Assembly: GCA_015485355.1 (NCBI GenBank)
Contig: WFTQ01000089.1
Span: 54,264-118,263 of the forward strand
DNA: 64,000 nucleotides
Origin: a bacterium
GTDB taxonomy: Bacteria > Calditrichota > Calditrichia > RBG-13-44-9 > J042
Direction: 5' to 3'
How positions within the stretch are numbered: position 1 is the first letter of the stretch; the number at the start of each line of letters is the position of its first letter. The notes below the pieces were generated by a model. The model was not told where the DNA came from. It was given only the letters and a program-made list of their open reading frames with translations, and searched no databases. Shown piece after piece: positions 40,152 to 64,000 of this stretch. The translations under genes were made by a program, and so were the position numbers.

Positions 40152-40152
40152 A

Positions 40153-45409: not shown

Positions 45410-46426
45410 TTGAGAATGGCGCAAAGGCCAATGAAAATATTGTGTTATACTGTGCTGGTGAGTGCTTGGTTGGGGATGAGTTGTATTACCGATGCCCCTC
45501 ATGATAATCCTTTGGACCCCCAGAACCCCAACAGCACCCTGACCCTGCGCGGGCGGGTGTTTACCCTGTATCCCCCCTATCAGGGAATTGCGGGGGTGGG
45601 CGTCTGGCTGGAGCCGCTGCACCGGTTTACCCGAACCGACGAAGCGGGTGCCTTTGGGTTCACCGATTTGAAAACGGGAACGTACACAGTGGTCACCACT
45701 ATGGAGGGCTATGCCTCCGATACCATGGAAGTGGTTTTGAAGAATCCTGTGAATGTGGAAATTTATCTGGACGCCCTGCCTCAATTTCGTCAAATCGTGT
45801 TGACCTCGCATCATTATGCCCGCTTCTTTCCGCCGGACGATTTGTATTTTCTGACCATCGACGTATTGGTCAGCGATCGGGATGGCCATTCGGATATCGT
45901 TCGTATGTGGTATGAACTGCCCGATTTAACCCTGCAGGACACCCTCCGGTTAGTGGAATTTCCCGATGCGTATTCGGCCAGATTTATTGCCCAGCGAACC
46001 CCCGAAGATTATCAGATCGCTTCTTTGCATTTATTGATAGGCAAAGCCTTTACTTTCAGGGTAGAGGACAAACCGGGAATGCGTACCGTTTCCCCTGCTT
46101 TTTATTTAACGCGTATTGTGGAAACCATCCCCGTACACGTGCAACCCACGGGCCTGGTTTCCCTTCCGGTGACCCAGGATAGCATTCGATTTGAGTGGGA
46201 GCCGGTGGTGCTGCCGTATCCCTTTTCCTTTCGAATAGAGATATACCGGTTGGACTTTGGGGTTACCACGCTGGTAAGTCGGATTGACGGGATCGCCTCA
46301 AGCCGAGTCGATTATTTATACAAAAATGACCTGACTCCCGGGGATCATTTATGGTTTCTCTATGTGGTGGACGAATACGGCAACACCGGTCGTTCCCGGG
46401 AGGGGGCCTTTCGTATCGTTCCCTAA
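45410..46426 (+). CDS. Lipoprotein with carboxypeptidase-regulatory-like (Cna-B/PEGA-like) beta-sandwich domain
   Basis: Lipobox LGMSC. LRGRVFTL...GVGVWLEP...RTDEAGAFGFTDLKTGTYTV is the CarboxypepD_reg-like pattern. Alternative start at 45431. Confidence 0.5.
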   Translation: MRMAQRPMKILCYTVLVSAWLGMSCITDAPHDNPLDPQNPNSTLTLRGRVFTLYPPYQGIAGVGVWLEPLHRFTRTDEAGAFGFTDLKTGTYTVVTTMEGYASDTMEVVLKNPVNVEIYLDALPQFRQIVLTSHHYARFFPPDDLYFLTIDVLVSDRDGHSDIVRMWYELPDLTLQDTLRLVEFPDAYSARFIAQRTPEDYQIASLHLLIGKAFTFRVEDKPGMRTVSPAFYLTRIVETIPVHVQPTGLVSLPVTQDSIRFEWEPVVLPYPFSFRIEIYRLDFGVTTLVSRIDGIASSRVDYLYKNDLTPGDHLWFLYVVDEYGNTGRSREGAFRIVP

Positions 46427-46445
46427 GCCGTTGGGGGTAAGAGGT

Positions 46446-47921: not shown

Positions 47922-49527
47922 AGGTTACCGTATCGAAAGGGAATTGAGTCGGGGCCCCATCACCACGGTATATCTGGCCCGGCAGGTGGAATTGGACCGC
48001 CTGGTGATTCTGAAAGTGTTGAACGTCCAGTGGCAAAAAGAGAAGGACCTGGTTCAGCGGTTCCGCCGGGAAGCCCGCATCTGCGCCCGCTTGCGCCATC
48101 CCAATATCGTTACCCTCTTTGATTTCGGTACCGCAGAGGGCTCCTTTTACCTGACCATTGAATACGTGGAGGGGAAAGATTTAAGAGAACTCATCGAAGC
48201 ATATCATCCTTTGCCTTTTTCGGTGATTGCTTTTATTACCCGGGAAATTTTAAAGGGGCTCACCTATGCCCATGGCAAGGGAGTGATCCATCGGGATTTG
48301 AAACCGGCCAACATCGTCATCAGCTGGGAGGGGGAAGTCAAAATCGCCGATTTTGGACTGGCAACGCTGGGCGATTTTCCTTCGGTGACCGAACCCGGGG
48401 GTACGGTGGGGACGCCGGCATACATGTCGCCGGAGCAGGCCCGGGGCGGATCCCTGGATGCCCGCAGCGATCTGTTCAATTTGGGTGCCACCCTGTACGA
48501 ACTGTGCACCGGCCGTTCGCCTTTCGAAGGAGAAAATCTGGCCCGCAGCATTCAGAAAGTGCTGAAAGAAGACCCCCCTTATCTGGGAACACAACGGCCG
48601 GATATTCCCGAGGGATATGCCAGGCTGGTACATCGGTTGTTGGCCAAACCCAGGGAAAAGCGGCCCCAGGGCGCCGGCGAGGTGTTGGAACGGTTAAAAT
48701 CCCTTTATCCGTTTCCCGACGAAGAGATACTGATGCGTTTCCTGAAACATCCCGAAGCCGTCCTTCCCCCGCCCGAGGTTCCAACCACCACCGAACCCCG
48801 GAAGCACAAAAGCCCCAATCTGTCCTGGATAATCGCGGTACTGGCCGCTTTAACCCTGAGTGGAGGATGGTTTATACTTCAGATATTTAAAAACCGGGCG
48901 GATACCGAACATCAAAATGCCTCTTGGGTACAGATCGACGATACCTTGGTATCCAGTCGAATTTTCCCGGACACCTTCTCTGTTGAGTCCGCGGCCCCTT
49001 CTCCTGAAGAGGGGGAAAACGCCGCTTTGACGGCCGAACCGCCCGCGGTTGGAGACGCCAAGGTTTCCAGCGAAACCCCGGATGCTTCGGAGAAACCTGC
49101 GGCCCGTAGCGGTGGGATTTTTCTCACGGTGTATCCTTGGGCGGATGTTTATATTGACGGCGTGTACCGGGAACGCACCCCTTTAAAGCAGCCTTTGCCG
49201 TTGTCCGAGGGGGAGTACATAGTGGAGCTGCGAAATCCCTATTATTCTGCTTATCAAACGCGCATCCACATTGCACCGGGGCGGGTCGATACCCTGAAGG
49301 TGACCCTGAGCCCCGCCCTGGGCTATCTGAATTTGCAGGTGAGTCCCTGGGCAAGAATCTATATCGATGGAGAATATGTCGAGACTACCCCGTTGCAGGA
49401 ACCGATCGCTTTATCGGCCGGCCGGCATGTATTACGATTGGTCAACCCCAATTTTCCCGTTTGGGAGGATACCATCGAAGTGCGGGCCGGCGAGACGCTG
49501 TTCCGTAAGGTTGCTTTGAAGAATTGA
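47911..49527 (+). CDS. Transmembrane Ser/Thr protein kinase with two extracytoplasmic PEGA domains
   Basis: Kinase subdomains VAIK-like RQVELDRLVILKV, HRDLKPAN, DFG, SPEQ. TM NLSWIIAVLAALTLSGGWFI. Two PEGA repeats (VYPWADVYIDGVYRERTPL and VSPWARIYIDGEYVETTPL). Confidence 0.8.
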   Translation: MEIEGYRIERELSRGPITTVYLARQVELDRLVILKVLNVQWQKEKDLVQRFRREARICARLRHPNIVTLFDFGTAEGSFYLTIEYVEGKDLRELIEAYHPLPFSVIAFITREILKGLTYAHGKGVIHRDLKPANIVISWEGEVKIADFGLATLGDFPSVTEPGGTVGTPAYMSPEQARGGSLDARSDLFNLGATLYELCTGRSPFEGENLARSIQKVLKEDPPYLGTQRPDIPEGYARLVHRLLAKPREKRPQGAGEVLERLKSLYPFPDEEILMRFLKHPEAVLPPPEVPTTTEPRKHKSPNLSWIIAVLAALTLSGGWFILQIFKNRADTEHQNASWVQIDDTLVSSRIFPDTFSVESAAPSPEEGENAALTAEPPAVGDAKVSSETPDASEKPAARSGGIFLTVYPWADVYIDGVYRERTPLKQPLPLSEGEYIVELRNPYYSAYQTRIHIAPGRVDTLKVTLSPALGYLNLQVSPWARIYIDGEYVETTPLQEPIALSAGRHVLRLVNPNFPVWEDTIEVRAGETLFRKVALKN

Positions 49528-49545
49528 ATGGCACGAAAATTGTAA

Positions 49546-50847
49546 TTGAATTTGAGGCAAGGAAAGAAAGAAGCGATGATGAAGTTACGGATCGGCGGTT
49601 TGCAATGGAGCATGGGGATGATATTGTTGCCCCTGATGGTTGGATGGGGGCAATGGGATCGGGGACCCGATCTACCCCTCCCGAGGGCCGGGGCGGCTGC
49701 GGTGGTCTTCGAAGGCGCCGTTTACATATTGGGGGGTAAGACGAACAACAACACCCTGTTAAATACCGTCGATCGGTACGATCCCCGCACGGGACAATGG
49801 GAAGCCGCCGCCCTGCCGAATTTCCCCAAACCCCGCTACAATGCCGCCGCCGTGGTTTTTCAGAACCAAATCTATCTGATCGGTGGGGTCGGTATGGGAG
49901 GCCAGGTCCTCCGTTCGGTGGAGGTCTACGATCCTGCGCAAAATAAGTGGTTTAGTGTGCATCGTATGCACTACGGCCGCCAGGGACACGTGGCGGTGGT
50001 ATTAAACGGAAAAATTTGCGTGCTCGGGGGCAGCGAAAATCTGGGATACGAATACGCCGACGACATAGAATGGTATGATTCCGCGGCAAACGACTGGGAA
50101 GAAAGCGACTCGGAATTGCCCGAAGGACGGGCGGCACCCTTTATCGGTGTGGTGAATAACGGGATCTATCTGTTTGGTGGATATTATATTCAACCTACCT
50201 CTGAAGCCCTTGTGGGCCGGCCGGATAGCAGCGGGGATTTTTCCTGGTTCTCCTTGCCTCCGCTGTCCAGCCCCCGCGCCTATGGCGGCAGCGTTACCCT
50301 TGGAGAAACAATTTATCTGATCGGCGGCGTGGGTAGCAACGGCAGGGCCACAGCACGGGTGGAAAGCTTTCGGGTTCCCGAAAATGCCTATGCCCAGGAA
50401 CCTTCTTTACAAATTCCCCGAAGCGGTATGGCCACCGTTCTCCTGGATAGCATTATCTATGTGATGGGCGGGTATGACCAGAACAATGCTTCCATCCTCT
50501 CGTCAATGGAGATGCTGAACCTCCGTTATACATCTCTGAAGGCGTCCGATGACCCGATAAGCGTTCCCGCCGATTTTGTGCAGCTCTGGGGATATCCCAA
50601 TCCTTTCAACGGACGGTTGACCTTGGAGGTGGGTTTAAAAACCGTTTCGGAAATCGAGCTTTCTGTGTTTAATTTGCGAGGGCAGCGGATAAGACGAATT
50701 TATCGGGGAACACTAACCGGAGGAGTCCATCGGTTTGCCTGGGATGCCCGCGATGATCAACAGCACAGGGTGGCGTCGGGTGTTTATTTCGCCGTGGTTA
50801 AAGCGGGTTCGTACGTCAGAAAGTTTAAAATGGTGTATGTCCGCTGA
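49546..50847 (+). CDS. Kelch-repeat beta-propeller protein with C-terminal type IX secretion (Por_Secre_tail) sorting domain
   Basis: Five or six Kelch blades (AAAVVFEGAVYILGG..., NAAAVVFQNQIYLIGG...). C-terminal about 80 aa YPNPFNGRLTLEV...LSVFNLRGQRI...GVHRFAWDARDD...ASGVYFAVVKAGSYVRKFKMVYV matches the T9SS CTD. Confidence 0.65.
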   Translation: MNLRQGKKEAMMKLRIGGLQWSMGMILLPLMVGWGQWDRGPDLPLPRAGAAAVVFEGAVYILGGKTNNNTLLNTVDRYDPRTGQWEAAALPNFPKPRYNAAAVVFQNQIYLIGGVGMGGQVLRSVEVYDPAQNKWFSVHRMHYGRQGHVAVVLNGKICVLGGSENLGYEYADDIEWYDSAANDWEESDSELPEGRAAPFIGVVNNGIYLFGGYYIQPTSEALVGRPDSSGDFSWFSLPPLSSPRAYGGSVTLGETIYLIGGVGSNGRATARVESFRVPENAYAQEPSLQIPRSGMATVLLDSIIYVMGGYDQNNASILSSMEMLNLRYTSLKASDDPISVPADFVQLWGYPNPFNGRLTLEVGLKTVSEIELSVFNLRGQRIRRIYRGTLTGGVHRFAWDARDDQQHRVASGVYFAVVKAGSYVRKFKMVYVR

Positions 50848-51831: not shown

Positions 51832-52284
51832 TTATAGAAACGTGGAAAAATCCACGCGGGTGGCTTGTCGGCTGAAAGTGCAGTCTTCCCCGATTAAGTT
51901 GCCTTCTACATTAATAAAACCGATCAGGCCGGGCGGTTTTTCCGAAATGGCCAATTGGGCGATGGCTCCCCCCATGCTGTGACCCATCAAAACGACGGAT
52001 GAGGGTTCAAGCCGTTGTAAAAGCGGATGGATTAAACGGGCCATCGGTTTCAGCGAATAGTCCAATCCGGGGGCTTTGCTACTCCATCCTCCACCGGGTA
52101 AATCCGGAATCGCAAGGCTGTAGCTCCGGAGCGCCGGGTGAGACCAAACGGCCCCATAATGGGTATGATCGCATCCCAATCCATGGATGAATAGTAACAA
52201 TGGGGATTGCCTTTTCCGATAGGCTGAAAACAGGGTGTGCCGGCCGAATGAAAACGACGTTGTTTGCACGGGTACGATCACCAA
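51832..52284 (-). pseudogene. Truncated alpha/beta-hydrolase fragment (N-terminal 150 aa only)
   Basis: HGLGCDHTHY oxyanion-hole region and nucleophile elbow GHSMGG are present. The ORF ends about 50 aa after the Ser, with no acid or His of the triad. Only 190 bp remain before the next gene. Confidence 0.35.
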
Positions 52285-52299
52285 TTGATTAAGAGTCCC

Positions 52300-53697
52300 T
52301 CAGCTTCTGGGCGGGGCGGCGGGAATGATCTCTCCTGCAGGGGTGTCGGCGAGGAGCCGACCCTTGTGCACCAGAATCGTTCCCCGCAAAATGGTATATT
52401 CCAAGGTCCCGGCAATTTTCATTCCCTCGTAGGGGCACCAGTCCGCCCGTCCGTGTCCGTGGCTACTGGAAAGGATGGTTTCTTGATCAGGATTCCAGAT
52501 GATCAAGTCCGCATCCAGGCCTATTTGAATGTCCCCTTTCCGATGGTTCAATCCGAAGATGCGAGCGGGGTGAGTTCCCAATACCTGAACCAATTGTTGG
52601 AGCGTTATTCGGTTTTGATGAACCCCGTAGGTATATAACAAAGGGAAAAGGGTTTCCACGCCCGGCAAACCGTTCGGGGTTTGGTGGAATTGTCGGTTCC
52701 CCTGTTCTTTCTGCTGTCGGGTAAACGGGCAGTGGTCGGTGCCGACCACATCGATGTCTCCGTTGCAAAGCGCCTGCCACAGCGCTTCCTGATCTTCTGG
52801 TCGCCTCAAGGGAGGTGTGGTAATGTAATAATGGCCGTTGGTTTTCCGGTAACATTGTTCGTTCAGCAGAAGGTATTGGGGGCAGGTTTCGATGTACAGG
52901 GGGGTTCCCCGGCTTCGGGCTTCCAGGGCGGCTTCCAGTCCTTGTCGGCTGCTCAGGTGTACAATATACAATGGTGCCTGGGTTTCGCGAGAGATGCGCG
53001 CCGCTGTTTCAATGGCGCGGGCTTCGGCTTCTGCCGGTCGGGAACGGGCGTGGTAGATCGGCTCCCGCCGGCCGGTGGAAAGATGACGATGGGTATTGCG
53101 CTCAACGATTTCATCGTCTTCGGCATGGAGCATGACCACTCCACCGGATCGGGAGACCGTTTCCAGAATGAGTCGAAATTGGGTCCAGGTGACCATCATA
53201 CCGGCCTCTTTGTAGGTGGAGAAGGTTTTAAAACTGCGGAATCCCTGCTGAATGAGGGAGGGAATCTGGTGCAGCCAGCGCTCCGGCTGGTCGGTAACGT
53301 TCACGTGAAGATGCACGTCCACGAAACTCTTCCCTCCGGCCCGGTGAATGCGTTCTTTCAGGGCCTGCTGAAGCGATTGCCCCTTGGCCTGCACCGTAAA
53401 GTCGATTATGGTGGTGATGCCTCCAAATGCGGCGGCCCGGCTGCCGGTGTTAAAGTCATCCGCCGACCAGGTGGTTTTGATGGGAATGCCCATGTGGGTG
53501 TGGGCGTCGATGAAGCCGGGGAAGACCAGGCACCCGCCGGCGTCGATTTCTTGAGCGGCTTTTGCGGGCAGGGAGGGCTCCAGGGCGGCAATCCGCCCGC
53601 CTCGAATACCGACGTCCAGACGGCGGGTCTCCCGTGAGGTGACCACCCGCCCGTTGCGAACGATTAAATCGAAGGAAGCGTTCCCTTCCGCTGCCAT
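52300..53697 (-). CDS. Cyclic amidohydrolase of the dihydropyrimidinase / D-hydantoinase family (HyuA-like)
   Basis: Metal-binding PGFIDAHTHMGIP. Overall about 465 aa of amidohydrolase fold. Start chosen at MAAEGNASFDLIV; the ORF track extends 24 codons upstream. Confidence 0.7.
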   Translation of the reverse strand: MAAEGNASFDLIVRNGRVVTSRETRRLDVGIRGGRIAALEPSLPAKAAQEIDAGGCLVFPGFIDAHTHMGIPIKTTWSADDFNTGSRAAAFGGITTIIDFTVQAKGQSLQQALKERIHRAGGKSFVDVHLHVNVTDQPERWLHQIPSLIQQGFRSFKTFSTYKEAGMMVTWTQFRLILETVSRSGGVVMLHAEDDEIVERNTHRHLSTGRREPIYHARSRPAEAEARAIETAARISRETQAPLYIVHLSSRQGLEAALEARSRGTPLYIETCPQYLLLNEQCYRKTNGHYYITTPPLRRPEDQEALWQALCNGDIDVVGTDHCPFTRQQKEQGNRQFHQTPNGLPGVETLFPLLYTYGVHQNRITLQQLVQVLGTHPARIFGLNHRKGDIQIGLDADLIIWNPDQETILSSSHGHGRADWCPYEGMKIAGTLEYTILRGTILVHKGRLLADTPAGEIIPAAPPRS

Positions 53698-53798
53698 GGC
53701 GTATCCTGTGTTGTCACATGTCACTCGCCCCGGGTGCTCGGGACTAACCCTGTGGCCCCATGGTTTCATCCGGAGCGCTTTCAGGCAACAGCCGGGGA

Positions 53799-54779
53799 TT
53801 ACATGGTTAAGGCCATAACGGCCTTCGCCGTGTGGAGCCGGTTTTCGGCTTCCTGATACACCACCGACTGCGGCCCATCAATGACGGCGTCGGTGACCTC
53901 GTATCCCCGATCGGCCGGAAGGCAATGCATGTAAATCGCCTCCTGTTTGGCCAGTTGCATTCGACGTTCGTCGCATATCCAGTCTTTGTATTTTTGGGCA
54001 ATTTGAAGCGCCTCCTGAGGCCGGTCGAACAGCTCCTGGATACCCCAGCTTTTGGGATAAACAATGTCTGCGCCTTCGAAAGCGGCGTCCATATCGTCCA
54101 CCACCTCGAATTTCACCCCAACGCGCCGGGCATTCTCCCGGGCAATGCGCAGGGGGGCTTCCATTAAGGCGTATTCCGGCGGATGGGCCAGGGTCACATC
54201 CAGACCAAAACGAGTCATTAACATGATCAATCCCTGGGGTACCGACAGGGGTTTGGCATAGGATGGAGCATAGGCCCAGGATACCACCATTTTTCGCCCC
54301 CGCAGATTTTCTCCGAAGATTTCCCGAATCGTCATCAGGTCTGCCAGGGTCTGGAAGGGATGATCCACATCGCACTGCAGGTTGAAAACCGGTTTATCGG
54401 CCCAACGTGCCATCTCTCGTATGTAACGATGGCCTTCCCCCGGTACCCGATCGTGACGAATGGCGATGGCGTGTCCATATGACGAGAGAATGATTCCCGT
54501 ATCTTTGGGACTTTCTCCGTGGGCGATTTGTGAGGTGGACACGTCGATGTAATGGGCATGCCCCCCCAGCTGGGTGATGCCGGCTTCGAACGAATTGCGC
54601 GTTCGGGTGGACTTGTCAAAAAACATGAGAAAGATGGTTTTATCGGGAAGAAATCGGTGGGGAATGTTGTGCTGAAACATAAACTTCAGTTCTTTGGCTG
54701 TGCGAAGCGCCAGTTCAATTTCCTCGTCACTCCAGTCCTGAGTGGAAATGAAATCCCGGCCTTTGAGCTGTCCGATCAT
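53799..54779 (-). CDS. YgeW-like putative carbamoyltransferase (OTCase/ATCase fold)
   Basis: Carbamoyl-phosphate-binding STRTRNSFE. N-terminal MIGQLKGRDFISTQDWSDEEIE resembles E. coli YgeW. Confidence 0.65.
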   Translation of the reverse strand: MIGQLKGRDFISTQDWSDEEIELALRTAKELKFMFQHNIPHRFLPDKTIFLMFFDKSTRTRNSFEAGITQLGGHAHYIDVSTSQIAHGESPKDTGIILSSYGHAIAIRHDRVPGEGHRYIREMARWADKPVFNLQCDVDHPFQTLADLMTIREIFGENLRGRKMVVSWAYAPSYAKPLSVPQGLIMLMTRFGLDVTLAHPPEYALMEAPLRIARENARRVGVKFEVVDDMDAAFEGADIVYPKSWGIQELFDRPQEALQIAQKYKDWICDERRMQLAKQEAIYMHCLPADRGYEVTDAVIDGPQSVVYQEAENRLHTAKAVMALTM

Positions 54780-54956
54780 GGGTCGCCTCCTTTTCGTTTT
54801 AACCTCTTACATCATCCGGTTTGCTCGGTTCGGATATTGTGTATCCCGGCTCCAGGGGATCAGAGCTACTTCCCTCCTGAAGAAGGGAATTTAATGACGG
54901 TTGACGATCAAAGGCAAAGGTTCTCTTACCGGCCGAAAAGAAAAGAGCAGGCAAGC

Positions 54957-56150
54957 TCATTTCCCCGTTTTTGCCCAGTCGAGGACGAAAGCAACATAGA
55001 AGGCTGTGGCTTTGGCCAGATGATCCAGGGGGATGTGTTCATCGGGGGCGTGAGCATACACTTCATTGCCCGGTCCAAAACCAATGGTGGGGATTTGGAA
55101 AAGGCCCATGGTGGCCACGCCATTGGTCGAAAAGGTCCATTTGTCCACCCGAGGAGCGTGATGAAAGAGCCTCCGGTAACTGTAGATCGCCGTTTGCAGC
55201 GCCGGATGATCGGAGGGCAGCACCCAGGTGGGATAATACTTCTTCATGGGATACACCGTGCCGCGGTAACTTGCCCGTCGGTATTCAGGCACCCAGGCAC
55301 GCGCGTCGGCCTTTCGAAATGCGTTCAGCGATTGAATTTCTTTCAGACAGCTGTCGATGGTTTCTCCCGCCGTTAACCGGCGGTCTAAGTGAATGGTGCA
55401 GGAGTCCGCCACGGCACACAGAGAAGGGGCCGTCGAGCGGATGTCGGAAATGGTAAGGCTGCCCGGCCCCAGAAAATCGTCCCTTGTTAAACGAGGATGG
55501 AGTCGCTCGATCTCTTGAACGATAGGGGCCATTTTGTAGATGGCATTGATCCCGCGCTCCGGTGCCGATCCATGGGCGGAAATCCCTGTCGTTTGTACTT
55601 GGATTTCCATACGGCCCCGATGACCCCGATAGATGTTCAGGTTGGTTGGCTCCGTGAGGAGAACCAGTTCGGGCTCGATGATCTGTTGTTCAATAATGTA
55701 TTTCCAGCACAGTCCGTCACAATCTTCTTCCATGACGGAAGCCACGACCCAGAGGGTGACATCTTCCGGGAGCCCCGTTTCAGCCAGAATTTTTCCGGCA
55801 TAAACGGCACTGGCTATCCCCCCTTTCTGATCGCAGGCTCCCCGGCCGTACAGTTTGCCTTCCCGGATTTCCCCTCCAAAGGGCTCGACCGTCCAGAGGT
55901 CAGGATTGCCCACGTCAACCACATCACAATGCCCATCGATCGCCACTACCCGACGGCCCCGGCCAAGACGCCCCATCACATTTCCCAGCGCGTCGATTTT
56001 TACCTCCTCAAATCCCGCTTTCTCCATTTCGGCCTGGATGCGCTGCACCACGTTTTCTTCTTCGCCGCTGAGGGAGGGTATGCGGACGATGTCTTGCAAA
56101 AAAGCGATCAGTTCGGGTTGCAATTGGAGGGCCCGTTTCAGCAGCGCCAT
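54957..56150 (-). CDS. M20-family metallopeptidase, YgeY-like
   Basis: AIDGHCDVVDVG metal site. M20 dimerisation region. 397 aa. Adjacent to the YgeW-like gene as in E. coli ygeW-ygeX-ygeY. Confidence 0.7.
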   Translation of the reverse strand: MALLKRALQLQPELIAFLQDIVRIPSLSGEEENVVQRIQAEMEKAGFEEVKIDALGNVMGRLGRGRRVVAIDGHCDVVDVGNPDLWTVEPFGGEIREGKLYGRGACDQKGGIASAVYAGKILAETGLPEDVTLWVVASVMEEDCDGLCWKYIIEQQIIEPELVLLTEPTNLNIYRGHRGRMEIQVQTTGISAHGSAPERGINAIYKMAPIVQEIERLHPRLTRDDFLGPGSLTISDIRSTAPSLCAVADSCTIHLDRRLTAGETIDSCLKEIQSLNAFRKADARAWVPEYRRASYRGTVYPMKKYYPTWVLPSDHPALQTAIYSYRRLFHHAPRVDKWTFSTNGVATMGLFQIPTIGFGPGNEVYAHAPDEHIPLDHLAKATAFYVAFVLDWAKTGK

Positions 56151-56338
56151 TTTCTCTCCTCCTTTTTCGCCTGAAACAATGGATTATCGCAAATCCTCCC
56201 AACAAAATAAAGACAAAATTGAAATCGTTCTGCAAGAAGTAATGAACGGTATTCTCAGCTTTCGCTACGATCGGATGCAATATTTGCTTATATTTTATTG
56301 TGGGGATATCAGGTTAGTCAAAAATTGCCGGGGGCATC

Positions 56339-57544
56339 ATGGCGGATTTTTTCCAGAATGGGCTCATTGCCACGTTACATCGCCTGAAGCAACGGCCGTT
56401 GGAATCTCTGGAAGCCGAGCTGAAGCGGTTTTCGCGAAAGCGCCCCATGGCGTTGGTGCTGCCGACGCTGTACTCCGAGTTGGAAGGCGAGGCCTTACCG
56501 AATATCATTGCGGAATTGCGCCAAGTGGAATATATCCAGGAGATCGTGATCGGATTGGATCGGGCGACCAAAAGCGAATTTCATTTTGCCAAAACCTTTT
56601 TTTCCGATCTGCCTCAGCCGCACCGGGTCATCTGGCAGGATGGCCCCAACATGTTGAAATTGCACGAGTTGTTAAAACACCATGGCCTCTCCATCGGCGA
56701 ACCGGGAAAAGGGCGCAACGCCTGGTTTTGCTTTGGGTATATTCTTTCGGCGGGCCGTTCCCGGGCCGTGGCCATTCACGATTGCGATATCTTAACCTAC
56801 GATCGCCACCTCCTGGCGCGCTTGTTTTATCCCGTCGCCAACCCCAATTTCGGCATTAAATTCTGTAAAGGGTACTATGCCCGGGTGACCGACCGATTGA
56901 ATGGACGGGTCACCCGACTGTTCGTGACCCCGCTGGTACGTTCCCTGAAAAAAATCCTGGGCCCTCTGGAGTATCTGGATTTTCTGGATGGTTTCCGCTA
57001 TCCCCTGGCCGGCGAGTTTTCGATGGGTGTGGATGTGCTGGAGCATATTCGTATTCCCAGCGATTGGGGATTGGAAGTGGGGGTGTTGTCCGAAGTATAC
57101 CGCAATTACGCCCTCAAACAGATTTGTCAGGTGGATATTGCCGATGAATTCGATCATAAACATCAGCCCCTCTCCGAAGAAGATCCTAACGCCGGCCTTT
57201 CGAAAATGACCATCGATATTGCCAAATCGATTTATCGAACCCTGGCCAGCATGGGGGTGGTGTTCTCCGAGGAGTTTTTTCGAACCATTAAGGCCACCTA
57301 TTTACGAACCGCCTTCGATTTTCTGGAAAAATATTATTACGATGCCAAGATTAACGGCCTCGACTTCGACCGGCATCAGGAGGAAAAGACCATCGAGGTG
57401 TTCATTCGCAGTATCATCATCGCCGGGGAACAGTTCCTGGCCAATCCCATGGAAGTGCCTCTCATTCCCAACTGGAGTCGGGTCATCTCGGCTATTCCTG
57501 AATTTTACGATCTGCTTTACAAATCGGTGGAGGAAGATAATTAA
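56339..57544 (+). CDS. Glucosyl-3-phosphoglycerate synthase-like retaining glycosyltransferase (GT81/GpgS-like)
   Basis: MALVLPTLYSELEGE, GKGRNAWF, AIHDCDIL (DxD), TDRLNGRVTRLFVTPLV, LAGEFS and DWGLEVGVLSE align with M. tuberculosis GpgS motifs (ISVVLPALNEE, GKGEALW, DSDL, GGGRVTELVARPLL, LSGEYA, GYGVEIGLLID). Confidence 0.55.
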   Translation: MADFFQNGLIATLHRLKQRPLESLEAELKRFSRKRPMALVLPTLYSELEGEALPNIIAELRQVEYIQEIVIGLDRATKSEFHFAKTFFSDLPQPHRVIWQDGPNMLKLHELLKHHGLSIGEPGKGRNAWFCFGYILSAGRSRAVAIHDCDILTYDRHLLARLFYPVANPNFGIKFCKGYYARVTDRLNGRVTRLFVTPLVRSLKKILGPLEYLDFLDGFRYPLAGEFSMGVDVLEHIRIPSDWGLEVGVLSEVYRNYALKQICQVDIADEFDHKHQPLSEEDPNAGLSKMTIDIAKSIYRTLASMGVVFSEEFFRTIKATYLRTAFDFLEKYYYDAKINGLDFDRHQEEKTIEVFIRSIIIAGEQFLANPMEVPLIPNWSRVISAIPEFYDLLYKSVEEDN

Positions 57545-57712
57545 CCGTCCCGTATCGCAACGTCAAGGCGGCACCGACGCACCCTCCCCTGAATGCAGTT
57601 GCATTCCCCCGGCGGGCTTGTTATTTTCTTTTCCAGAGGGGGCTGATGAAACAACGGGAAGTTTTTTACTCCCAGAAGGGAGAGGCGGTTTGTAACCCTT
57701 TTGGGTGGATCG

Positions 57713-57727
57713 GGAACCAGAGGTTCC
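57713..57727 (+). promoter_or_regulatory. Palindrome GGAACC-AGA-GGTTCC 44 bp upstream of xdhA
   Basis: Read directly. Partner of the 43068..43081 site. Confidence 0.3.
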
Positions 57728-57770
57728 TAAAATCGAAACGTTTTTACTTTGACAATGACGGGAGTGCGCC

Positions 57771-59192
57771 ATGGCTGCCCCCATTCATTTCTGGCTGAAC
57801 AACGAAGAACTCCGCTGCAACGAACCACCGGGATTATCGGTACTGGACTATTTACGCAAAAGGCGCCGTTTGGTGGGCACCAAGGAGGGTTGCAAAGAAG
57901 GGGATTGCGGTGCCTGTACCGTGCTGGTCGGGGAATTGCAGGGGCGGCAGGTGATTTACCGGCCGATGACCTCCTGTTTGATGCCGCTGGGCGAATTGCA
58001 CGGTAAACATCTGGTCACGATCGAAGGGATTAACCGACCCGAGTTGAATCCCGTACAGCAAGCCATTGTTCAGGAAGGCGCCACCCAGTGCGGCTTTTGT
58101 ACCCCCGGTATTGTGATGTCCCTGATGGGGTATATCATGCAAAAGGGACAGGTAGTGGATGCCCGGGGCATAAAGCGGTGGCTGAGTGGACATTTGTGCC
58201 GTTGTACGGGGTATCGTTCGCTGAAAGCCGTTGCCGGACATCTGCAAACCAGTGTAGGAGATCGCCCGGGGATAGAGAACCTGATTCGAAACCGATGGTT
58301 GCCGGAATACTTTGCCCACATGCCGCGCCGGTTGGCCCGCATCGCCCCGCCGGTGCACCGGGATGGAAAACCGGAAAACCGGCTGATCATTGCCGGCGGA
58401 ACCGATATTTATGTCCAACGGGGGGAGGAACTGCCCGAAACCGATGTCTTCCTGTTCAATTTGATGCCCAAGCCGAAGGGCATACGCCTTTCAGGAAAGG
58501 CTTTGCACATCGGGGCCCTGACAACTTTTGAAGAACTGGCCGCCCATGCTCAGGTCCGGCGGCTCATTCCCCGTATTCGTGAATATATGCACCTGATAGC
58601 CTCGTTGCAAATTCGCCATCGTGCCACGGTAGGGGGGAATATTATCAATGCCTCCCCCATTGCCGATATTGTGATCCTGTTTCTGGCGCTGGATGTTCGC
58701 CTGGTGTTGCAGAAGGGCAGGCAGCGGCGGGTGCTGCCTCTGCGACAGTTTTACTTGGGGTATAAACGGATGGATCAACGGCCGGGAGAAATTCTTGTAG
58801 AGGTACAAATCCCTCGCGATGTTGAAGGTTGCCGCATTCATTTCGAGAAGGTCAGTAAACGCCGGACGCTGGATATCGCTTCGGTGAACAGCGCCATATG
58901 CTTGCGTTCCAATGATGATGGAACCATTGAGAGCGCCGCCGTAGCTGTGGGGGGGGTCGCCCCGGTGCCGCTTTTTCTGGAGAAAACCAGCCGCTTTCTG
59001 GAAGGAAAATCCTGCCGTCCGGAAACGGTGTTGCAGGCCGTTGAAATCGCCATGACCGAAATATCTCCCATCAGCGATGTCAGAGGGAGCGCCGATTATA
59101 AGCGTTTATTGACCCGTCAGCTCATCATTGCCCATTTTACAACCCTGTTCCCGGATAAAATGCAGGTGAGGGAATTTTATGAAGTCCACTGA
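57771..59192 (+). CDS. xdhA: Xanthine dehydrogenase small subunit ([2Fe-2S] x2 plus FAD-binding domain; XdhA of Rhodobacter-type nomenclature)
   Basis: Plant-type [2Fe-2S] CKEGDCGACTV. Second cluster CGFCTPG...CRCTGY. FAD-binding domain RLIIAGGTDIYVQ. Confidence 0.8.
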   Translation: MAAPIHFWLNNEELRCNEPPGLSVLDYLRKRRRLVGTKEGCKEGDCGACTVLVGELQGRQVIYRPMTSCLMPLGELHGKHLVTIEGINRPELNPVQQAIVQEGATQCGFCTPGIVMSLMGYIMQKGQVVDARGIKRWLSGHLCRCTGYRSLKAVAGHLQTSVGDRPGIENLIRNRWLPEYFAHMPRRLARIAPPVHRDGKPENRLIIAGGTDIYVQRGEELPETDVFLFNLMPKPKGIRLSGKALHIGALTTFEELAAHAQVRRLIPRIREYMHLIASLQIRHRATVGGNIINASPIADIVILFLALDVRLVLQKGRQRRVLPLRQFYLGYKRMDQRPGEILVEVQIPRDVEGCRIHFEKVSKRRTLDIASVNSAICLRSNDDGTIESAAVAVGGVAPVPLFLEKTSRFLEGKSCRPETVLQAVEIAMTEISPISDVRGSADYKRLLTRQLIIAHFTTLFPDKMQVREFYEVH

Positions 59193-61491
59193 TGCCATTT
59201 TACATACCCGGGGGGAATCCCGTTACGTGGACGATCTTCCTCAACCCGAAGGCCTGCTGCATGCCGCGGTGTTTTTTTCTCCCATCGCCCATGGTCGGAT
59301 ACAGAATTTCGATGTTTCCCGGGCCCGTCAATCGGAAGGGGTGGTGGCCGTACTGACCGCGGAAGATATTCCAGGAGAAAACCAGATCGGGCCACTGATC
59401 CCCGATCAAGAGCTTCTGGCCGAGGAGGAAGTGGTCTACATTGGACAGCCGGTGGCGCTGATTGTGGCCCAAACCGCCGAAACGGCCCGAAAGGCGGCCG
59501 GGCGGATTGTTCTGGATGTGGAAGAGTATCCGGTGATCACCGATCCCCGCGAGGCTTATCAGAAGGGGCAGATCTTTGGAACGCCGCGCACCTTTCAGCT
59601 GGGCGATGTGGATGCCGCCTGGCCACACTGTGAGGTCGTTGTGGAGGGACATTGCGAGGTTGGGGGGCAGGAGCATGTATACCTGGAAACCCAGCGCGCC
59701 CGTGCCGTCCCCGGCGAGGGGCGGGTGATCAGAGTTTATTCCTCAACCCAGAGCCCTTACGCGGTGCAGAAACATGTGGCCCGGGTGCTGGGATATCCCA
59801 ATCACCTCATCGAGGTCGACGTGTTGCGGCTGGGCGGAGGTTTCGGCGGTAAGGAAGACCAGGCCACCCCCTGGGCCTGCCTGACGGCGTTAGCCACCTG
59901 GTATACCGGACATCCGGTGGAACTGGTCTTGACCCGTCAAGAAGATATGCTGATGACCGGAAAGCGCCATCCTTATTGTTCCGACTTTAAGATCGGGGTC
60001 ACCCGGGAGGGCAAGATTCTGGCTTACGAGGTCCGGCATTACCAGAATGCCGGCGCCGCGGCGGACCTGTCTCCCGCAATCCTGGAACGCACCCTGTTCC
60101 ATAGTACCAATAGTTATTATATTCCCAATGTTCGTCTGTTTGCAGTATCCTGTCGCACCCATCTTCCGCCATTTACGGCTTTTCGGGGATTCGGCGGTCC
60201 CCAGGGAATGTTTGTGATGGAGGCCGCTATTGCCCGGGTGGCCGAGGCCCTGGGAATGCCCCGGGAGGAGATTCAGCGGAAAAATTTGCTTCAGGAAAAC
60301 GACCTGTTCCCCTATGGACAACGGGTGGTGGATTGCCGGGCCCGCCGGAGCTGGGATGTCGCCATGGAAACGTATCGCTTTTCCGCTTGGAAGAAACGGG
60401 TGGAACAGTTTAACCGGAAGCATTTCCACCGGAAAAAAGGCCTGGCGGTCATGCCCATATGTTTCGGCATCTCTTTTACGGCGACCTTTCTGAATCAGGC
60501 CAGTGCGCTGGTGCATGTGTATACCGATGGAAGTGTCAGCATTTCCACCGGTGGCGTGGAAATGGGCCAGGGTCTGCGGGCAAACATTACCACCATCGCT
60601 GCTCGGGCGCTGGGAATTCGGCCGGAACGCATCAAGATAGAGTCGACCAACACCACCCGTATCGCCAACATGTCCCCCAGTGCTGCCAGTGCAACCACGG
60701 TGCTCAACGGGAATGCGACCCTTCTGGCTATCCGGCAGATTGTGTCGCGCCTGAAATCCATGATTGCCCGGGAACTAAATTTATCCGATCCCGATCGGGT
60801 GACCATTCATGACGAGAAAGTGTGGTATCGGGGTAGCCAGACCGGTTGGACCTGGACGCAGTTGGTCCAGACGGCCTACGGCAAACGCATTAATCTCTCG
60901 GCCCAGGGCTTTTTTGCCACGCCGGGCATCTATTTCGACAAGCAAAAAGAAAAAGGCCGGCCTTTTGCCTATCATGTATACGGTACGGCCATTCTGGAGG
61001 TAACGCTGGATTGCTTACGGGGAATCTATACCATCGATGCCGTGAAAATTGTCCACGATCTGGGGCGTCCCCTGAATCGTCTCATCGATCTGGGGCAGGT
61101 AGAGGGAGGGCTGGCGCAGGGTTTGGGGTGGATGACCGTGGAAGAGCTGCTTTTCGATGAGAAGGGACGCAACTTGTCCAGTGCCCTGGCCACCTATAAA
61201 CCGCCCGATGTATACTTCATGCCCGACGATCTTCAGGTGACCTTTCTGGAAAATGCCGACGAACCCATAGGTCCCTATGGCAATAAAGCCGTGGGGGAGC
61301 CGCCGTTTATGTACGGAATCGGGGTGTTTTTTGCCCTTCGCCAGGCCATGCAAGCGTTTCGCCCCCGCAAGGATTATGAATTCAAGGCACCCTTGACACC
61401 CGAAAGGGTGCTTTTGGAATTGCATCGGGAAGAGGTGAGACAGGGGTGTCTACGGCCGGCAACGGTGGAGTCTGCAAGGCAGTCGGACTGA
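59179..61491 (+). CDS. xdhB: Xanthine dehydrogenase / aldehyde oxidase molybdopterin-binding large subunit
   Basis: 770 aa. a/b hammerhead domain. Mo-cofactor region GGGFGGKE. Active-site Glu region GEPPFMYGIG. Confidence 0.85.
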   Translation: MKSTDAILHTRGESRYVDDLPQPEGLLHAAVFFSPIAHGRIQNFDVSRARQSEGVVAVLTAEDIPGENQIGPLIPDQELLAEEEVVYIGQPVALIVAQTAETARKAAGRIVLDVEEYPVITDPREAYQKGQIFGTPRTFQLGDVDAAWPHCEVVVEGHCEVGGQEHVYLETQRARAVPGEGRVIRVYSSTQSPYAVQKHVARVLGYPNHLIEVDVLRLGGGFGGKEDQATPWACLTALATWYTGHPVELVLTRQEDMLMTGKRHPYCSDFKIGVTREGKILAYEVRHYQNAGAAADLSPAILERTLFHSTNSYYIPNVRLFAVSCRTHLPPFTAFRGFGGPQGMFVMEAAIARVAEALGMPREEIQRKNLLQENDLFPYGQRVVDCRARRSWDVAMETYRFSAWKKRVEQFNRKHFHRKKGLAVMPICFGISFTATFLNQASALVHVYTDGSVSISTGGVEMGQGLRANITTIAARALGIRPERIKIESTNTTRIANMSPSAASATTVLNGNATLLAIRQIVSRLKSMIARELNLSDPDRVTIHDEKVWYRGSQTGWTWTQLVQTAYGKRINLSAQGFFATPGIYFDKQKEKGRPFAYHVYGTAILEVTLDCLRGIYTIDAVKIVHDLGRPLNRLIDLGQVEGGLAQGLGWMTVEELLFDEKGRNLSSALATYKPPDVYFMPDDLQVTFLENADEPIGPYGNKAVGEPPFMYGIGVFFALRQAMQAFRPRKDYEFKAPLTPERVLLELHREEVRQGCLRPATVESARQSD

Positions 61492-61572
61492 GCGGGGCAT
61501 GGAAAAGGGATCGCGGCGGCCGCTTTTTCTCACCGGGCAAGCAAAGAGGAGAAACGGAGTGACCATTTCCCC

Positions 61573-62697
61573 ATGAAGCATTCGATATTACAGGAATGGA
61601 TCCGGTGCATGCGGAGCAGGCGATCCTGTGTGCTGGTGACGGTTGTGGAAACAAGGGGGTCTTCTCCCCAGAAGCCGGGTGCCCGTATGCTGGTGTTCCC
61701 GGACGGATCCTTTAAGGGCACTCTGGGCGGTGGCTGTGTAGAAGGGGACCTGTGGTACCAGGCCCGGCGCCTGTTCAAAGAGGGGGGAGACGCCCGGGTG
61801 ATTCGCCGTACGTTAAATGCGGATCTGGCGGCCCGGGATGGCATGGTATGCGGAGGGACCATGACCTTCCTGCTGGAACCTTTTTTCGATGATTCCCCCC
61901 TCCCTCCGGAACTGGACGAACTGGAACAGGCGATTCTGGGAAAGACCCCCGTGGCTCTGGTCACCGTGGTCGAAGACCCTCAATCCAATATGCCAGCGGG
62001 AACCCGGTGGTTGGTCCGTGGGGATGGAACGGTGAAGGGACCTTCCAATGCCCGGAGGCTGGCCCCCGAAGTCGTCACCCTGGCCAAACAGCTGGCCCCC
62101 TATGGTGATAATCGGCTTTTCACGACCCCGGCAGGCCTGCAGGTGTTTGTGGAAGGAATTACGGCCCCGGCAACCCTGATATTGTTGGGAGCAGGGCATG
62201 TGAACAAGGCCATTGCCGATCTGGCCGGTTATCTGGATTTTCGCATCATAGTTGTCGACGATCGATCCGATTTGGCCGACCGGGAAAGGTTTCCTTGTGC
62301 GGATGCCGTTTGGGTGGAGCCGTACGATCGCGCGCTGCAACAAATGCAAATTTCCCATAATTCCTTTATCATTGCCGCTACCCGGGGACACAAATTCGAT
62401 GACCAGGCGGTAAAACACGCCCTGGCCACACCGGCGCGTTACATCGGTATTCTGGGCAGCCAACGGAAAGTTCTGATGATCGTGCGGCATTTGTTGCAAG
62501 AAGGTCTGGCACCCGATCAGTTAAAGAGGATATACGCCCCGGTGGGCCTGGACATCGGTGCTTTAACCCCGGAAGAAATCGCTGTGAGCGTGCTGGCCGA
62601 GGTGATAATGGTGCGTCGGGGCGGGAGCGGAACCTCCCTGCGAATCCCCGACGATGAATACCTGTCCCGGTTTCCTCTCTCCGATGCCAACCCATAA
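61573..62697 (+). CDS. xdhC: XdhC/CoxI-family molybdenum-hydroxylase maturation factor
   Basis: N-terminal XdhC_CoxI domain LVTVVETRGSSPQKPGARML. C-terminal Rossmann-like LILLGAGHVNKAIADLA. Alternative start at 61609. Confidence 0.75.
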   Translation: MKHSILQEWIRCMRSRRSCVLVTVVETRGSSPQKPGARMLVFPDGSFKGTLGGGCVEGDLWYQARRLFKEGGDARVIRRTLNADLAARDGMVCGGTMTFLLEPFFDDSPLPPELDELEQAILGKTPVALVTVVEDPQSNMPAGTRWLVRGDGTVKGPSNARRLAPEVVTLAKQLAPYGDNRLFTTPAGLQVFVEGITAPATLILLGAGHVNKAIADLAGYLDFRIIVVDDRSDLADRERFPCADAVWVEPYDRALQQMQISHNSFIIAATRGHKFDDQAVKHALATPARYIGILGSQRKVLMIVRHLLQEGLAPDQLKRIYAPVGLDIGALTPEEIAVSVLAEVIMVRRGGSGTSLRIPDDEYLSRFPLSDANP

Positions 62698-62942
62698 TGT
62701 GTTCCCCCGGCTCCGCCGTTTTACTGAAAAGGGGTATGCATTCCTTTTCAACAATTCCGGAGCCCTTTGAATGAGGAGGCCTTTCCGCGGTTTTCCTTCC
62801 GCAGGGCGTCCAGGGAGTCAATAGGGCTCAAGATTTTTAAAATTTTTGCAAAATTAGGGAAAAAGGGCTCGAAAACGCCCCGTTTTTCTCAAGATTATTA
62901 CCGGTAGTGTCGATTCTGACAGAAAAAAGAGGGGGTGCAGGC

Positions 62943-63482
62943 ATGCATGGCATTGTATTTTCCGAATTGCGAAAGTTTGTGGAACATTCTTTGGGACCCG
63001 GGTCCTGGCAAAAACTGTTAAAGGAAGCCGGTTTGGGCAATCGAATTTACATGGCCATTCAGGAGTATCCCGATGAGGAAGCGGGTGTTCTGGTTGAGGC
63101 CGCTGCCCGGATTACCCGTAAGTCCCCGACCGCTATTCTGGAGGAGTTTGGGCAGTATATTGCCCCTCAGTTGCTCCAGATGTACAAGGCCTTGATATCG
63201 CCGCAGTGGCGTACCCTGGACTTGATCGAGCATACCGAGGATGTGATCCATAAGGTGGTGCGGGCGAAGAATCCCGGAGCCAGGCCGGCGGAGTTGAAAT
63301 GCCAGAGGGTCAGTCCATCGGAGCTCATCTTGGTCTATGCATCCAATCGCCGCATGTGTGCTCTGGCCAGGGGGATTGCCCGTGGCGTGGCCGATCACTA
63401 TGGGGAACGCCTTTCCGTCTCCGAAACGCAATGTATGCATAACGGCGCACCCGAGTGCCACATTCGGTTACGGGTGATGTAA
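62943..63482 (+). CDS. Stand-alone H-NOX (haem nitric oxide/oxygen-binding) sensor domain protein
   Basis: MHGIVFSELRKFVEHSLGPGSWQKLL aligns with the Caldanaerobacter H-NOX start MKGIIFNVLEDMVVAQCGMSVWNELL. Proximal His in DVIHKVV. Y-x-S-x-R haem-propionate motif YASNRR. C-terminal TQCMHNGAPECHIRLRV vs DTCMHTGADHCMLIIEL. SD-like GAGGGGG precedes the start. Confidence 0.7.
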   Translation: MHGIVFSELRKFVEHSLGPGSWQKLLKEAGLGNRIYMAIQEYPDEEAGVLVEAAARITRKSPTAILEEFGQYIAPQLLQMYKALISPQWRTLDLIEHTEDVIHKVVRAKNPGARPAELKCQRVSPSELILVYASNRRMCALARGIARGVADHYGERLSVSETQCMHNGAPECHIRLRVM

Positions 63483-63679
63483 TGAACCATCCGGGGGGCT
63501 GGTCACCGGCATATGGGGGATGCTGGTGACCAGAGTTTTTTCCGTCACCTCTTCAGGATGATGAAAGGATTACCCACTTTTTCTCACCTGAATTCCCTTA
63601 AGATTTTGATTCCGTCCATTGAGGCCCTATTTTTATTTTCCTTGGGTTTGGAGGTATCATCGCAAAGCGGGAGTGTCTC

Positions 63680-64000
63680 ATGGCGTTATTCATTACCAAT
63701 GTGGATGTTTTTACCAACGATGAGAAGAACCGTTTGATTCATGATGGTGCGGTGGCCATTGAGGGGAATCGGATCGTTGCCGTGGGGCGGTTGTTGGCGT
63801 TGCGGGAACAGTTTGCTCACTTTCCCCGGTTGGACGGCGGCGGTCGATTGTTGATGCCGGGTTGGATAAACGTTCACATGCATTTTTATAGCACTTTCGC
63901 CAGGGGGCTGGCGGTGAGGCGCAAGCCGCGGAATTTCGCCGAGATTTTGGCATACCTATGGTGGAAGCTGGATCGTTCGCTGGACCTGGAAGCGGTTTAT
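63680..64000 (+). CDS. ssnA: SsnA-family amidohydrolase (chlorohydrolase/deaminase superfamily), partial: first 107 aa
   Basis: LLMPGWINVHMHFYSTFARGL...ILAYLWWKLDRSLDLEAVY aligns with E. coli SsnA (IVMPGIVCSHNHFYSGLSRGI...LKNLWWRLDRALDEESLY). Runs off the window end. Confidence 0.7.
   Translation, partial: MALFITNVDVFTNDEKNRLIHDGAVAIEGNRIVAVGRLLALREQFAHFPRLDGGGRLLMPGWINVHMHFYSTFARGLAVRRKPRNFAEILAYLWWKLDRSLDLEAVY

Follow-up and report, generated by a model that had tools for sequence, protein, structure and literature searches.

What is encoded by a run of nine adjacent genes in Calditrichota DNA, several of which recall the ygeW–ssnA neighbourhood of Escherichia coli? The genes occupy positions 52300–64000 of a 64,000-nucleotide stretch (contig WFTQ01000089.1, assembly GCA_015485355.1; the whole stretch is called the window below), and a sequence-only reading, made without database searches, had listed them and proposed the link to E. 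coli. Open reading frame (ORF) listing and hidden Markov model (HMM) scans found all nine side by side in the order given there, with genes for a hydantoinase, a carbamoyltransferase and a YgeY-family protein on the minus strand and six genes, for a GpgS-like protein, XdhA, XdhB, XdhC, an H-NOX protein and the 5′ end of SsnA, on the plus strand. A tblastn comparison with E. coli MG1655 bore out the proposed link, giving identities of 37% for HyuA, 40% for YgeW, 52% for YgeY and 34% for SsnA. We consider the region to be the left half of a ~21-kb cluster, from a marine-type Calditrichota bacterium, for anaerobic purine catabolism via the 2,8-dioxopurine (reductive uric acid) pathway, and put the probability of this reading at about 0.7. 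It is a variant of an already characterised pathway with several swapped parts, rather than a system of a new kind. What the sequences show directly is which genes are present, which catalytic residues are kept and that the synteny is conserved.

The pathway was reconstituted in 2025 by Li et al. (PMC12507026) and Liu et al. (bioRxiv 10.1101/2025.04.24.650524). In these two studies, XdhD–YgfM or clostridial XdhAC, termed 2,8-dioxopurine dehydrogenase (DOPDH), reduces urate to 2,8-dioxopurine, which is dearomatised by YgfK or UacX; ring opening by SsnA and HyuA, which between them act on both rings, leads to 2,3-diureidopropionate, from which YgeW splits off one ureido group phosphorolytically, a reaction that together with carbamate kinase (YqeA) gives ATP; the second ureido group is hydrolysed by YgeY, and 2,3-diaminopropionate is converted to pyruvate by YgeX. 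The end products are pyruvate, ammonia and carbamoyl phosphate, and the two studies disagree on which ureido group YgeW attacks. In Clostridium sporogenes, a separate xanthine dehydrogenase (XDH) makes urate from hypoxanthine and xanthine upstream of DOPDH (bioRxiv 10.1101/2025.04.24.650524), and SsnA was the marker used by Li et al. for pathway clusters (PMC12507026). The YgeW, YgeY and SsnA steps, described in the sequence-only reading as biochemically undefined, are among these defined reactions, and its ‘xanthine-to-carbamate’ route does not agree with the known end products. Neither study mentions Calditrichota or KSB1, and a literature search returned nothing specific on them.

Entry into such a pathway would be through the xanthine dehydrogenase module. 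XdhA (57771–59192, plus strand) has two 2Fe–2S domains and an FAD domain (Pfam Fer2, Fer2_2, FAD_binding_5 and CO_deh_flav_C), and XdhB (59179–61491, plus strand) is the molybdopterin subunit. The top PDB matches of XdhB were mammalian xanthine oxidoreductase (XOR; 564 bits) and Rhodobacter capsulatus XDH, with aldehyde oxidases and CO dehydrogenases far lower. In an alignment with rat XOR and in a multiple alignment, Q767, E802, R880, F914, F1009, T1010, A1078 and E1261 (bovine numbering) were all conserved, whereas both E. coli proteins, XdhA and XdhD, carry Q in place of E802, and R880 is replaced by A in XdhA and by N in XdhD. Aldehyde oxidases differ from XOR at the E802 and R880 positions. 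Because XdhB keeps every purine-specific XOR catalytic residue, we assign XdhAB as a genuine xanthine-type dehydrogenase, as had been proposed, and predict that it converts hypoxanthine and xanthine to urate. The adjoining XdhC/CoxI-family molybdenum (Mo)-cofactor insertion chaperone (61573–62697, plus strand; Pfam XdhC_CoxI and XdhC_C) had been described as XdhC/YqeB-like, and only the first half of that label held: it scored 288 against NF045664 (cutoff 350), the HMM scan reported no match to the YqeB model, and E. coli YqeB aligned to it in two pieces (30% over 252 residues and 30% over 98). By these comparisons the maturase is of the ordinary XdhC type, not YqeB. Its start codon is uncertain, with gene calls ranging from 355 to 374 residues, and exact look-up of the 374-residue ORF gave no match.

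The window end at base 64000 cuts the island within ssnA (63680–64000, plus strand), of which it holds 107 of 451 codons (107.5 bits for the fragment against NF005540). Genome and metagenome scans with this fragment recovered no more of the source contig than a piece of 1.4 kb (L081). We extended the cluster by ~9.5 kb via same-strain contigs matched by the 179-residue H-NOX protein: L164, with 1 mismatch in 11,058 bp; L167, which is 100% identical; and L166 (GCA_015492835.1). After ssnA, these contigs carry a shortened ygfK (mini-ygfK), a Thiamine_BP-family gene, the gene for an Mo enzyme, and genes for a ThrC-like and a CysK-like pyridoxal phosphate (PLP) enzyme. A Calditrichota locus, L001, has the same order past ssnA, with proteins 61–96% identical. 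The suggestion that the island itself could encode a complete route was not upheld, as the reductase, the second Mo enzyme and the PLP enzymes all lie past base 64000.

Full-length SsnA, an amidohydrolase (451 residues, from a same-strain contig), scored above the cutoff of NF005540 (495.9 versus 444). Mini-YgfK is 651 residues long and, with a score of 432 against TIGR03315 (cutoff 835), aligned to residues 7–406 of E. coli YgfK (265 bits, 34% identity) and to a C-terminal ferredoxin motif; the N-terminal and candidate catalytic domains are kept, as are two CxxCxxCxxxC (4Fe–4S) motifs. This form was found in 18 loci and the E. coli type of YgfK in 34, and a YqeB-like gene within 10 kb in none of the 18. 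The Mo enzyme is an 858-residue fused 2Fe–2S/Mo protein with no FAD domain, which scored 994.6 against TIGR03311 (‘selenium-dependent xanthine dehydrogenase’; cutoff 830) and is only 25% identical to E. coli XdhD. It keeps E802, R880 and E1261 and has Thr at A1078, one of two DOPDH signature changes given by Liu et al. (bioRxiv 10.1101/2025.04.24.650524); we describe it as resembling DOPDH. Between mini-ygfK and this enzyme, on the opposite strand, lies the Thiamine_BP gene (PF01910, YkoF/MTH1187-like; 100 residues; L164 14423–14725, minus strand).

The threonine-synthase-like PLP gene (L164 17787–19031, corresponding to window positions 70729–71973) exceeded the cutoff of NF006050 (346 versus 303), and the distant CysK-like gene lies at L164 19153–20540 (window 72095 onward). 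In FCB clusters (Fibrobacteres–Chlorobi–Bacteroidetes group), this pair sits between the Mo enzyme and YgeY. We counted co-occurrence in 159 foreign SsnA loci with 10-kb flanks: ThrC-like PLP genes were present in 48, some of them Bacillota clusters in which YgeW and YqeA are found as well, and true YgeX in only 3, with L048 alone carrying both YgeX and a ThrC-like gene. Li et al. counted ‘YgeX’ by PF00291 (PMC12507026), a criterion that would take in ThrC- and CysK-like paralogues, and surveys that score any PF00291 protein as ‘YgeX’ may have lumped in the PLP pair, which is present in many environmental SsnA clusters.

The three minus-strand genes of the nine-gene run would supply the later steps. 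The hyuA-like gene (52300–53697) encodes a D-hydantoinase/dihydropyrimidinase (TIGR02033, 454.8 versus cutoff 393.25), which we predict forms 2,3-diureidopropionate from ureidomethyl-hydantoin by opening its hydantoin or dihydrouracil ring; the start of the gene was placed at 53697, giving 465 residues as on the same-strain contigs, compared with 489 for the longest ORF. The YgeY-family M20 amidohydrolase (54957–56150) scored well above the cutoffs of NF009555 (551 versus 321) and TIGR03526 (527.7 versus 321.5), and is predicted to hydrolyse the remaining ureido group to leave 2,3-diaminopropionate. YgeY, HyuA, SsnA and the TIGR03311 enzyme are all above curated HMM cutoffs. Between hyuA and ygeY lies the gene for a short carbamoyltransferase of 326 residues (53799–54779), whose best PDB matches were YgeW 3Q98 (231 bits) and 2YFK (211), followed by Pyrococcus furiosus ornithine carbamoyltransferase (OTC; 195) and N-acetylornithine carbamoyltransferase (AOTCase; 188). 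It carries the YgeW-type motifs SQIAHGE, NLQCDxDHPxQ, WAYxPSYxKPLSVPQG and YMHCLPAD, and an extended Pro-rich loop, WAYAPSYAKPLSVPQG, that is common to YgeW and AOTCase. We predict that it cleaves one ureido group of 2,3-diureidopropionate by phosphorolysis to yield carbamoyl phosphate.

The order of the nine genes was found again in two more Calditrichota lineages (L001 and L161), and the XdhAB–(XdhC)–SsnA core in 12 further loci; because of this recurrence we do not regard the clustering as chance. In many FCB-type loci the core runs XdhA, XdhB, (XdhC), SsnA, mini-YgfK, Mo enzyme, PALP, PALP, YgeY, and in a KSB1 genome SsnA, mini-YgfK, Mo enzyme, PALP, PALP, YgeY and the short carbamoyltransferase form one co-directional run. 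The FCB-type origin proposed for the window is supported because the nearest named relatives, both for the SsnA fragment and for the carbamoyltransferase, come from metagenome-assembled genomes of Calditrichota and KSB1, and because a neighbouring Kelch protein has a type IX secretion system (T9SS) sorting tail. In a KSB1 relative (L170, 11000–12875), genes for a PduS/RnfC-like flavo-iron–sulfur protein and a BMC-domain shell protein directly follow the short carbamoyltransferase, and this pair may be an electron-transfer module for the cluster.

From these genes we propose the following scheme, whose enzymatic steps are all predicted by homology to the enzymes of E. coli and Clostridium that were described biochemically in 2025; the source of the electrons and the nature of the last PLP step are predictions too. 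XdhAB, matured by XdhC, would convert hypoxanthine and xanthine to urate, from which the TIGR03311 2Fe–2S/Mo enzyme past the window end would take off the C6 oxygen to give 2,8-dioxopurine. The ring would then be reduced by the truncated YgfK, probably fed by ferredoxin or another partner, the reduced ring opened by SsnA and the second ring by HyuA to give 2,3-diureidopropionate. The short YgeW-like carbamoyltransferase would release one ureido group as carbamoyl phosphate, YgeY would hydrolyse the other to leave 2,3-diaminopropionate, and a PLP enzyme would convert this to pyruvate and ammonia.

Several observations count against the assignment. Mini-YgfK is without the central ~500 residues that hold the pyridine-nucleotide oxidoreductase (NADPH/FAD) module of the characterised enzyme; because this module is missing, and by analogy with the ferredoxin-dependent clostridial enzymes in PMC12507026, its electron source is probably ferredoxin or some other partner. 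For the TIGR03311 enzyme, the alignment is gapped at the other DOPDH signature position (F1009V), which is unreadable there. No YgeX was found in the window plus the 9.5-kb extension, the sole match being at 22% to the ThrC-like PLP enzyme, and the same search space held no carbamate kinase (YqeA), selD, yqeB or yqeC; YgfM and MocA were likewise not found there. In some characterised strains carbamate kinase is unlinked from the cluster (bioRxiv 10.1101/2025.04.24.650524). Within that space there is no marker gene of the selenium-dependent molybdenum hydroxylase (SDMH) system, to which, according to the sequence-only reading, the E. coli neighbourhood has been linked. XdhA and XdhB both score below their model cutoffs (TIGR02963, 358.2 versus 467; TIGR02965, 779.4 versus 849.5), although these models are the best-scoring for them by a wide margin. 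The carbamoyltransferase falls under the YgeW cutoffs (NF005538, 267.6 versus 453; TIGR03316, 249.1 versus 500), with scores for AOTCase (NF003384, 246; cutoff 288) and OTC (TIGR00658, 244; cutoff 281) near those for YgeW, and public records label its family ornithine or N-acetylornithine carbamoyltransferase. The YgeW models are nonetheless its top-scoring ones, although it is far under their cutoffs.

These carbamoyltransferase scores, which lie nearer to the AOTCase and OTC cutoffs than to those of YgeW, would suit a leftward operon unrelated to purines, in which the carbamoyltransferase is an arginine-pathway OTC or N-acylornithine carbamoyltransferase and ‘YgeY’ an ArgE-like deacylase. 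The C-terminal ENRLH helix is as in OTC and AOTCase, the family is unusually conserved (75–90% identity over more than 120 clusters) under its OTC/AOTCase labels, and in one locus (L169) the carbamoyltransferase lies apart from most pathway genes. We nevertheless think this explanation improbable. YgeY exceeds its equivalog cutoff by far, whereas the ArgE and DapE models score below theirs. The carbamoyltransferase is missing the SMG loop of OTC, and SQIAHGE, NLQCDxDHP and WAYxPSYxKPLSVPQG are common to it and YgeW. In a neighbour-joining tree (200 bootstraps, few outgroups), the short and long forms and a 358-residue group made one clade in 167/200 bootstraps, without the Xanthomonas campestris AOTCase and the OTCs; the short and long forms alone did so in 108/200. 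Long YgeW was monophyletic in 200/200 and the 326-residue protein, which is without three YgeW insertions, fell outside that clade. The label YgeW-like holds for its grouping, and not for membership of the curated YgeW family or of the long clade. Genomic context also argues against an arginine operon: the KSB1 run is unbroken from SsnA to the carbamoyltransferase, and among the 159 SsnA loci the short form (15 loci) and long YgeW (13 loci) never occurred together, each typically adjoining YgeY. A carbamate kinase gene accompanies the short form in three loci (L015, L079 and L088), and where the maps are resolved the two genes are immediate neighbours. We read the short carbamoyltransferase as a functional substitute for YgeW outside the curated family, and the OTC and AOTCase labels on its family are probably a systematic misannotation. 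Neither of the two outcomes that the sequence-only reading had named as speaking against it was seen: XdhAB did not side with aldehyde oxidoreductases or CO dehydrogenases, and the ygeW-, ygeY- and ssnA-like genes did not fall into unrelated subfamilies such as OTCase or ArgE.

The xdhABC genes might similarly be an independent, conventional purine-oxidation module that passes urate to a uricase/allantoin route elsewhere, with its place beside ssnA a coincidence. XdhAB with XdhC is indeed the type used by aerobic Proteobacteria, published clusters have XdhD or XdhAC-type enzymes instead, and a strong terminator (63499–63533) separates the xdhABC unit from ssnA. Against coincidence, XdhAB at least 55% identical to that of the window lies directly upstream of SsnA in 12 independent FCB-type loci, and more distant XdhAB adjoins SsnA in Lentisphaerae and Victivallales loci. 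C. sporogenes too needs a separate XDH upstream of DOPDH, and the window is free of uricase and allantoinase genes, so we judge an independent module to be a poor bet. The stand-alone H-NOX/V4R haem sensor-type protein between xdhC and ssnA (62943–63482, plus strand; 179 residues; Pfam HNOB 115.6 versus cutoff 25.5) could conceivably work with the module, as a nitric oxide (NO)/redox sensor or a haem partner tuning the Mo enzymes, given that xanthine oxidoreductases can make NO from nitrite. It aligned full-length to Shewanella H-NOX with the proximal, haem-binding His103 and the YxSxR motif (YASNR) intact, has been kept in this position in three lineages (83–100% identity), and appears to share a transcription unit with xdhABC that ends at the terminator. 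We still regard such a function as rather unlikely: the gene starts 246 nt after xdhC, its neighbours are xdhC and ssnA with no adjacent signalling partner (histidine kinase, cyclase or methyl-accepting chemotaxis protein), and among SsnA clusters it is confined to this sub-lineage. As none of the other 159 SsnA loci carries it, we rejected H-NOX as a conserved pathway component. The stand-alone family is small (92 matches) and its homologues stand in varied, unrelated contexts: next to CstA/LonC; in Pendulispora, next to a set of Ser/Thr-kinase, Roadblock and V4R genes; and next to a chemotaxis operon (L173, L174 and L175). Haloarchaea also have members of the family.

Taken as a 2,8-dioxopurine pathway cluster, the locus can be set beside its known counterparts. 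With the E. coli ygeW-ygeX-ygeY-hyuA-yqeA...ygfK-ssnA-ygfM-xdhD cluster (PMC12507026) it shares, besides the four identities given above, the N-terminal domain of YgfK (34%), a molybdenum hydroxylase, an XdhC-family maturase and, by prediction, the same overall plan, in which the purine ring is reduced, two rings are opened and two ureido groups are split off. It differs in its short carbamoyltransferase, in a YgfK without the NADPH/FAD middle part, in having a TIGR03311 Mo enzyme and no YgfM beside ssnA, in the embedded Rhodobacter-type XdhAB/XdhC, in its two other PLP enzymes (YgeX, YqeA, YqeB, YqeC and MocA being absent from the window and extension), and in a changed gene order with divergent operons. 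The C. sporogenes uric-acid cluster (bioRxiv 10.1101/2025.04.24.650524) likewise pairs an XDH for urate with a fused, FAD-less 2Fe–2S/Mo enzyme, for which formation of 2,8-dioxopurine is a prediction in the Calditrichota case, and shares A1078T; its XDH is selenium-dependent, whereas the one here is a sulfur-type XdhAB with an XdhC chaperone and no SDMH markers nearby, and the host is a free-living FCB bacterium rather than a gut Firmicute. The module itself matches the XdhAB–XdhC system of R. capsulatus and Pseudomonas (PDB 1JRO) in its 2Fe–2S/FAD small subunit, Mo large subunit, dedicated XdhC and fully kept catalytic residues, but is linked here to an anaerobic reductive pathway and not to uricase/allantoin genes. 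The carbamoyltransferase has STRTR, HPxQ, HCLP, SQIAHGE, NLQCDxDHP, the Pro-rich loop and the same genomic partners as the knotted carbamoyltransferase YgeW (3Q98) and the Enterococcus homologue 2YFK, but is 70 residues shorter (the three missing insertions), with a C-terminus like that of OTC/AOTCase.

As a tentative proposal, which we hold at somewhat below even odds, Calditrichota, KSB1 and allied free-living anaerobes may have their own version of the pathway, with a sulfur-type XdhAB entry, a ferredoxin-linked mini-YgfK, a short YgeW-related carbamoyltransferase and a ThrC-like/CysK-like pair in place of YgeX. That pair possibly acts on a different intermediate. The cutoffs of the published survey (YgeW 63%, YgfK 41% at 80% coverage, YgeX 50%; bioRxiv 10.1101/2025.04.24.650524) would probably miss the Calditrichota variant. 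Until now the pathway has been presented as a trait of Firmicutes and Enterobacteria associated with the gut and with hosts; this cluster puts it in sediment- and vent-type FCB bacteria, which suggests that purines are mineralised anaerobically in marine sediments. The parts that differ, namely the truncated reductase that probably uses another electron donor, the short carbamoyltransferase labelled OTC/AOTCase and the two PLP enzymes recurrent in dozens of SsnA clusters, offer concrete starting points for enzymology and annotation correction.

The second gene with no enterobacterial counterpart in the sequence-only reading, encoding a GpgS-like GT-A glycosyltransferase (56339–57544, plus strand), is also present, and both it and H-NOX belong to families whose usual contexts are unrelated to the island. 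The GpgS-like protein had no Pfam match and scored 358.7 against NF040724 (Methanococcoides-type glucosyl-3-phosphoglycerate synthase; cutoff 700). It is the most conserved protein of the island, with 96% amino acid identity to L001 and L161 and ~83% DNA identity to L161, compared with 60–90% for the other island proteins between those same lineages. Conservation of this degree could have been taken as a sign of a pathway role, which we rejected because the whole family is conserved across phyla (62–65% identity in other phyla, even Gammaproteobacteria) with an osmolyte-type context. Elsewhere the gene is normally preceded by a HAD phosphatase, the usual compatible-solute arrangement; Caldithrix abyssi and Thalassolituus have this phosphatase in front of the gene, the island does not, and the gene takes this place in the island in just three lineages, L001, L161 and that of the window. 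It is probably a compatible-solute enzyme and a passenger, and both it and H-NOX are lineage-specific additions outside the pathway. The true start of H-NOX is the ATG at 62943 rather than the GTG at 62907 (191-residue ORF): exact look-up of the 191-residue version gave no match because the start codon was wrong, whereas the 179-residue version matched the same-strain contigs.

A sigma-70-like promoter match, TTGACT-18-TAAAAT (10/12 consensus positions; 56292–56321, minus strand), lies in the divergent intergenic region upstream of ygeY, and promoter-like sites overall were no more numerous than in shuffled sequence. A sigma-54 promoter search gave no signal (29 matches versus 27 expected), and a scan against Rfam gave no riboswitch or other RNA match across the whole window, the island included. 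The terminator after H-NOX is an intrinsic-terminator-like hairpin on the plus strand, with a 14-bp stem and then a T-run, and closes the xdhABC–hnox unit. No convincing operator was shared among intergenic regions; the only repeat was one of 14 nt, CCTTTCCGCGGTTT, downstream of two genes, at 62779–62793, shortly past the xdhC stop, and at L164 ~14188–14202, just after the mini-ygfK stop.

The island is bordered on its left by a truncated alpha/beta hydrolase gene downstream of hyuA (51832–52284, minus strand), which matches residues 2–131 of an intact 237-residue homologue in L161 (65% identity) and then meets a stop codon, its C-terminal half being missing or degenerate. Genes for housekeeping, chemotaxis and the cell envelope make up the remainder of the window, in which there are no selD, carbamate kinase or Mo-cofactor genes. 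Upstream of the island, at 46362–50847, are genes for a GAF-domain sigma-54 enhancer-binding protein, a Ser/Thr kinase with PEGA domains and the Kelch-repeat protein with the T9SS sorting tail; the enhancer-binding protein resembles E. coli YgeV in the generic AAA+ region alone (39%). Farther away, a DUF4147/MOFRL protein (glycerate-kinase-type) adjoins an EamA transporter at 31889–33217, and a chemotaxis set of CheA, a CheZ-like protein and CheR lies at 37046–41392.

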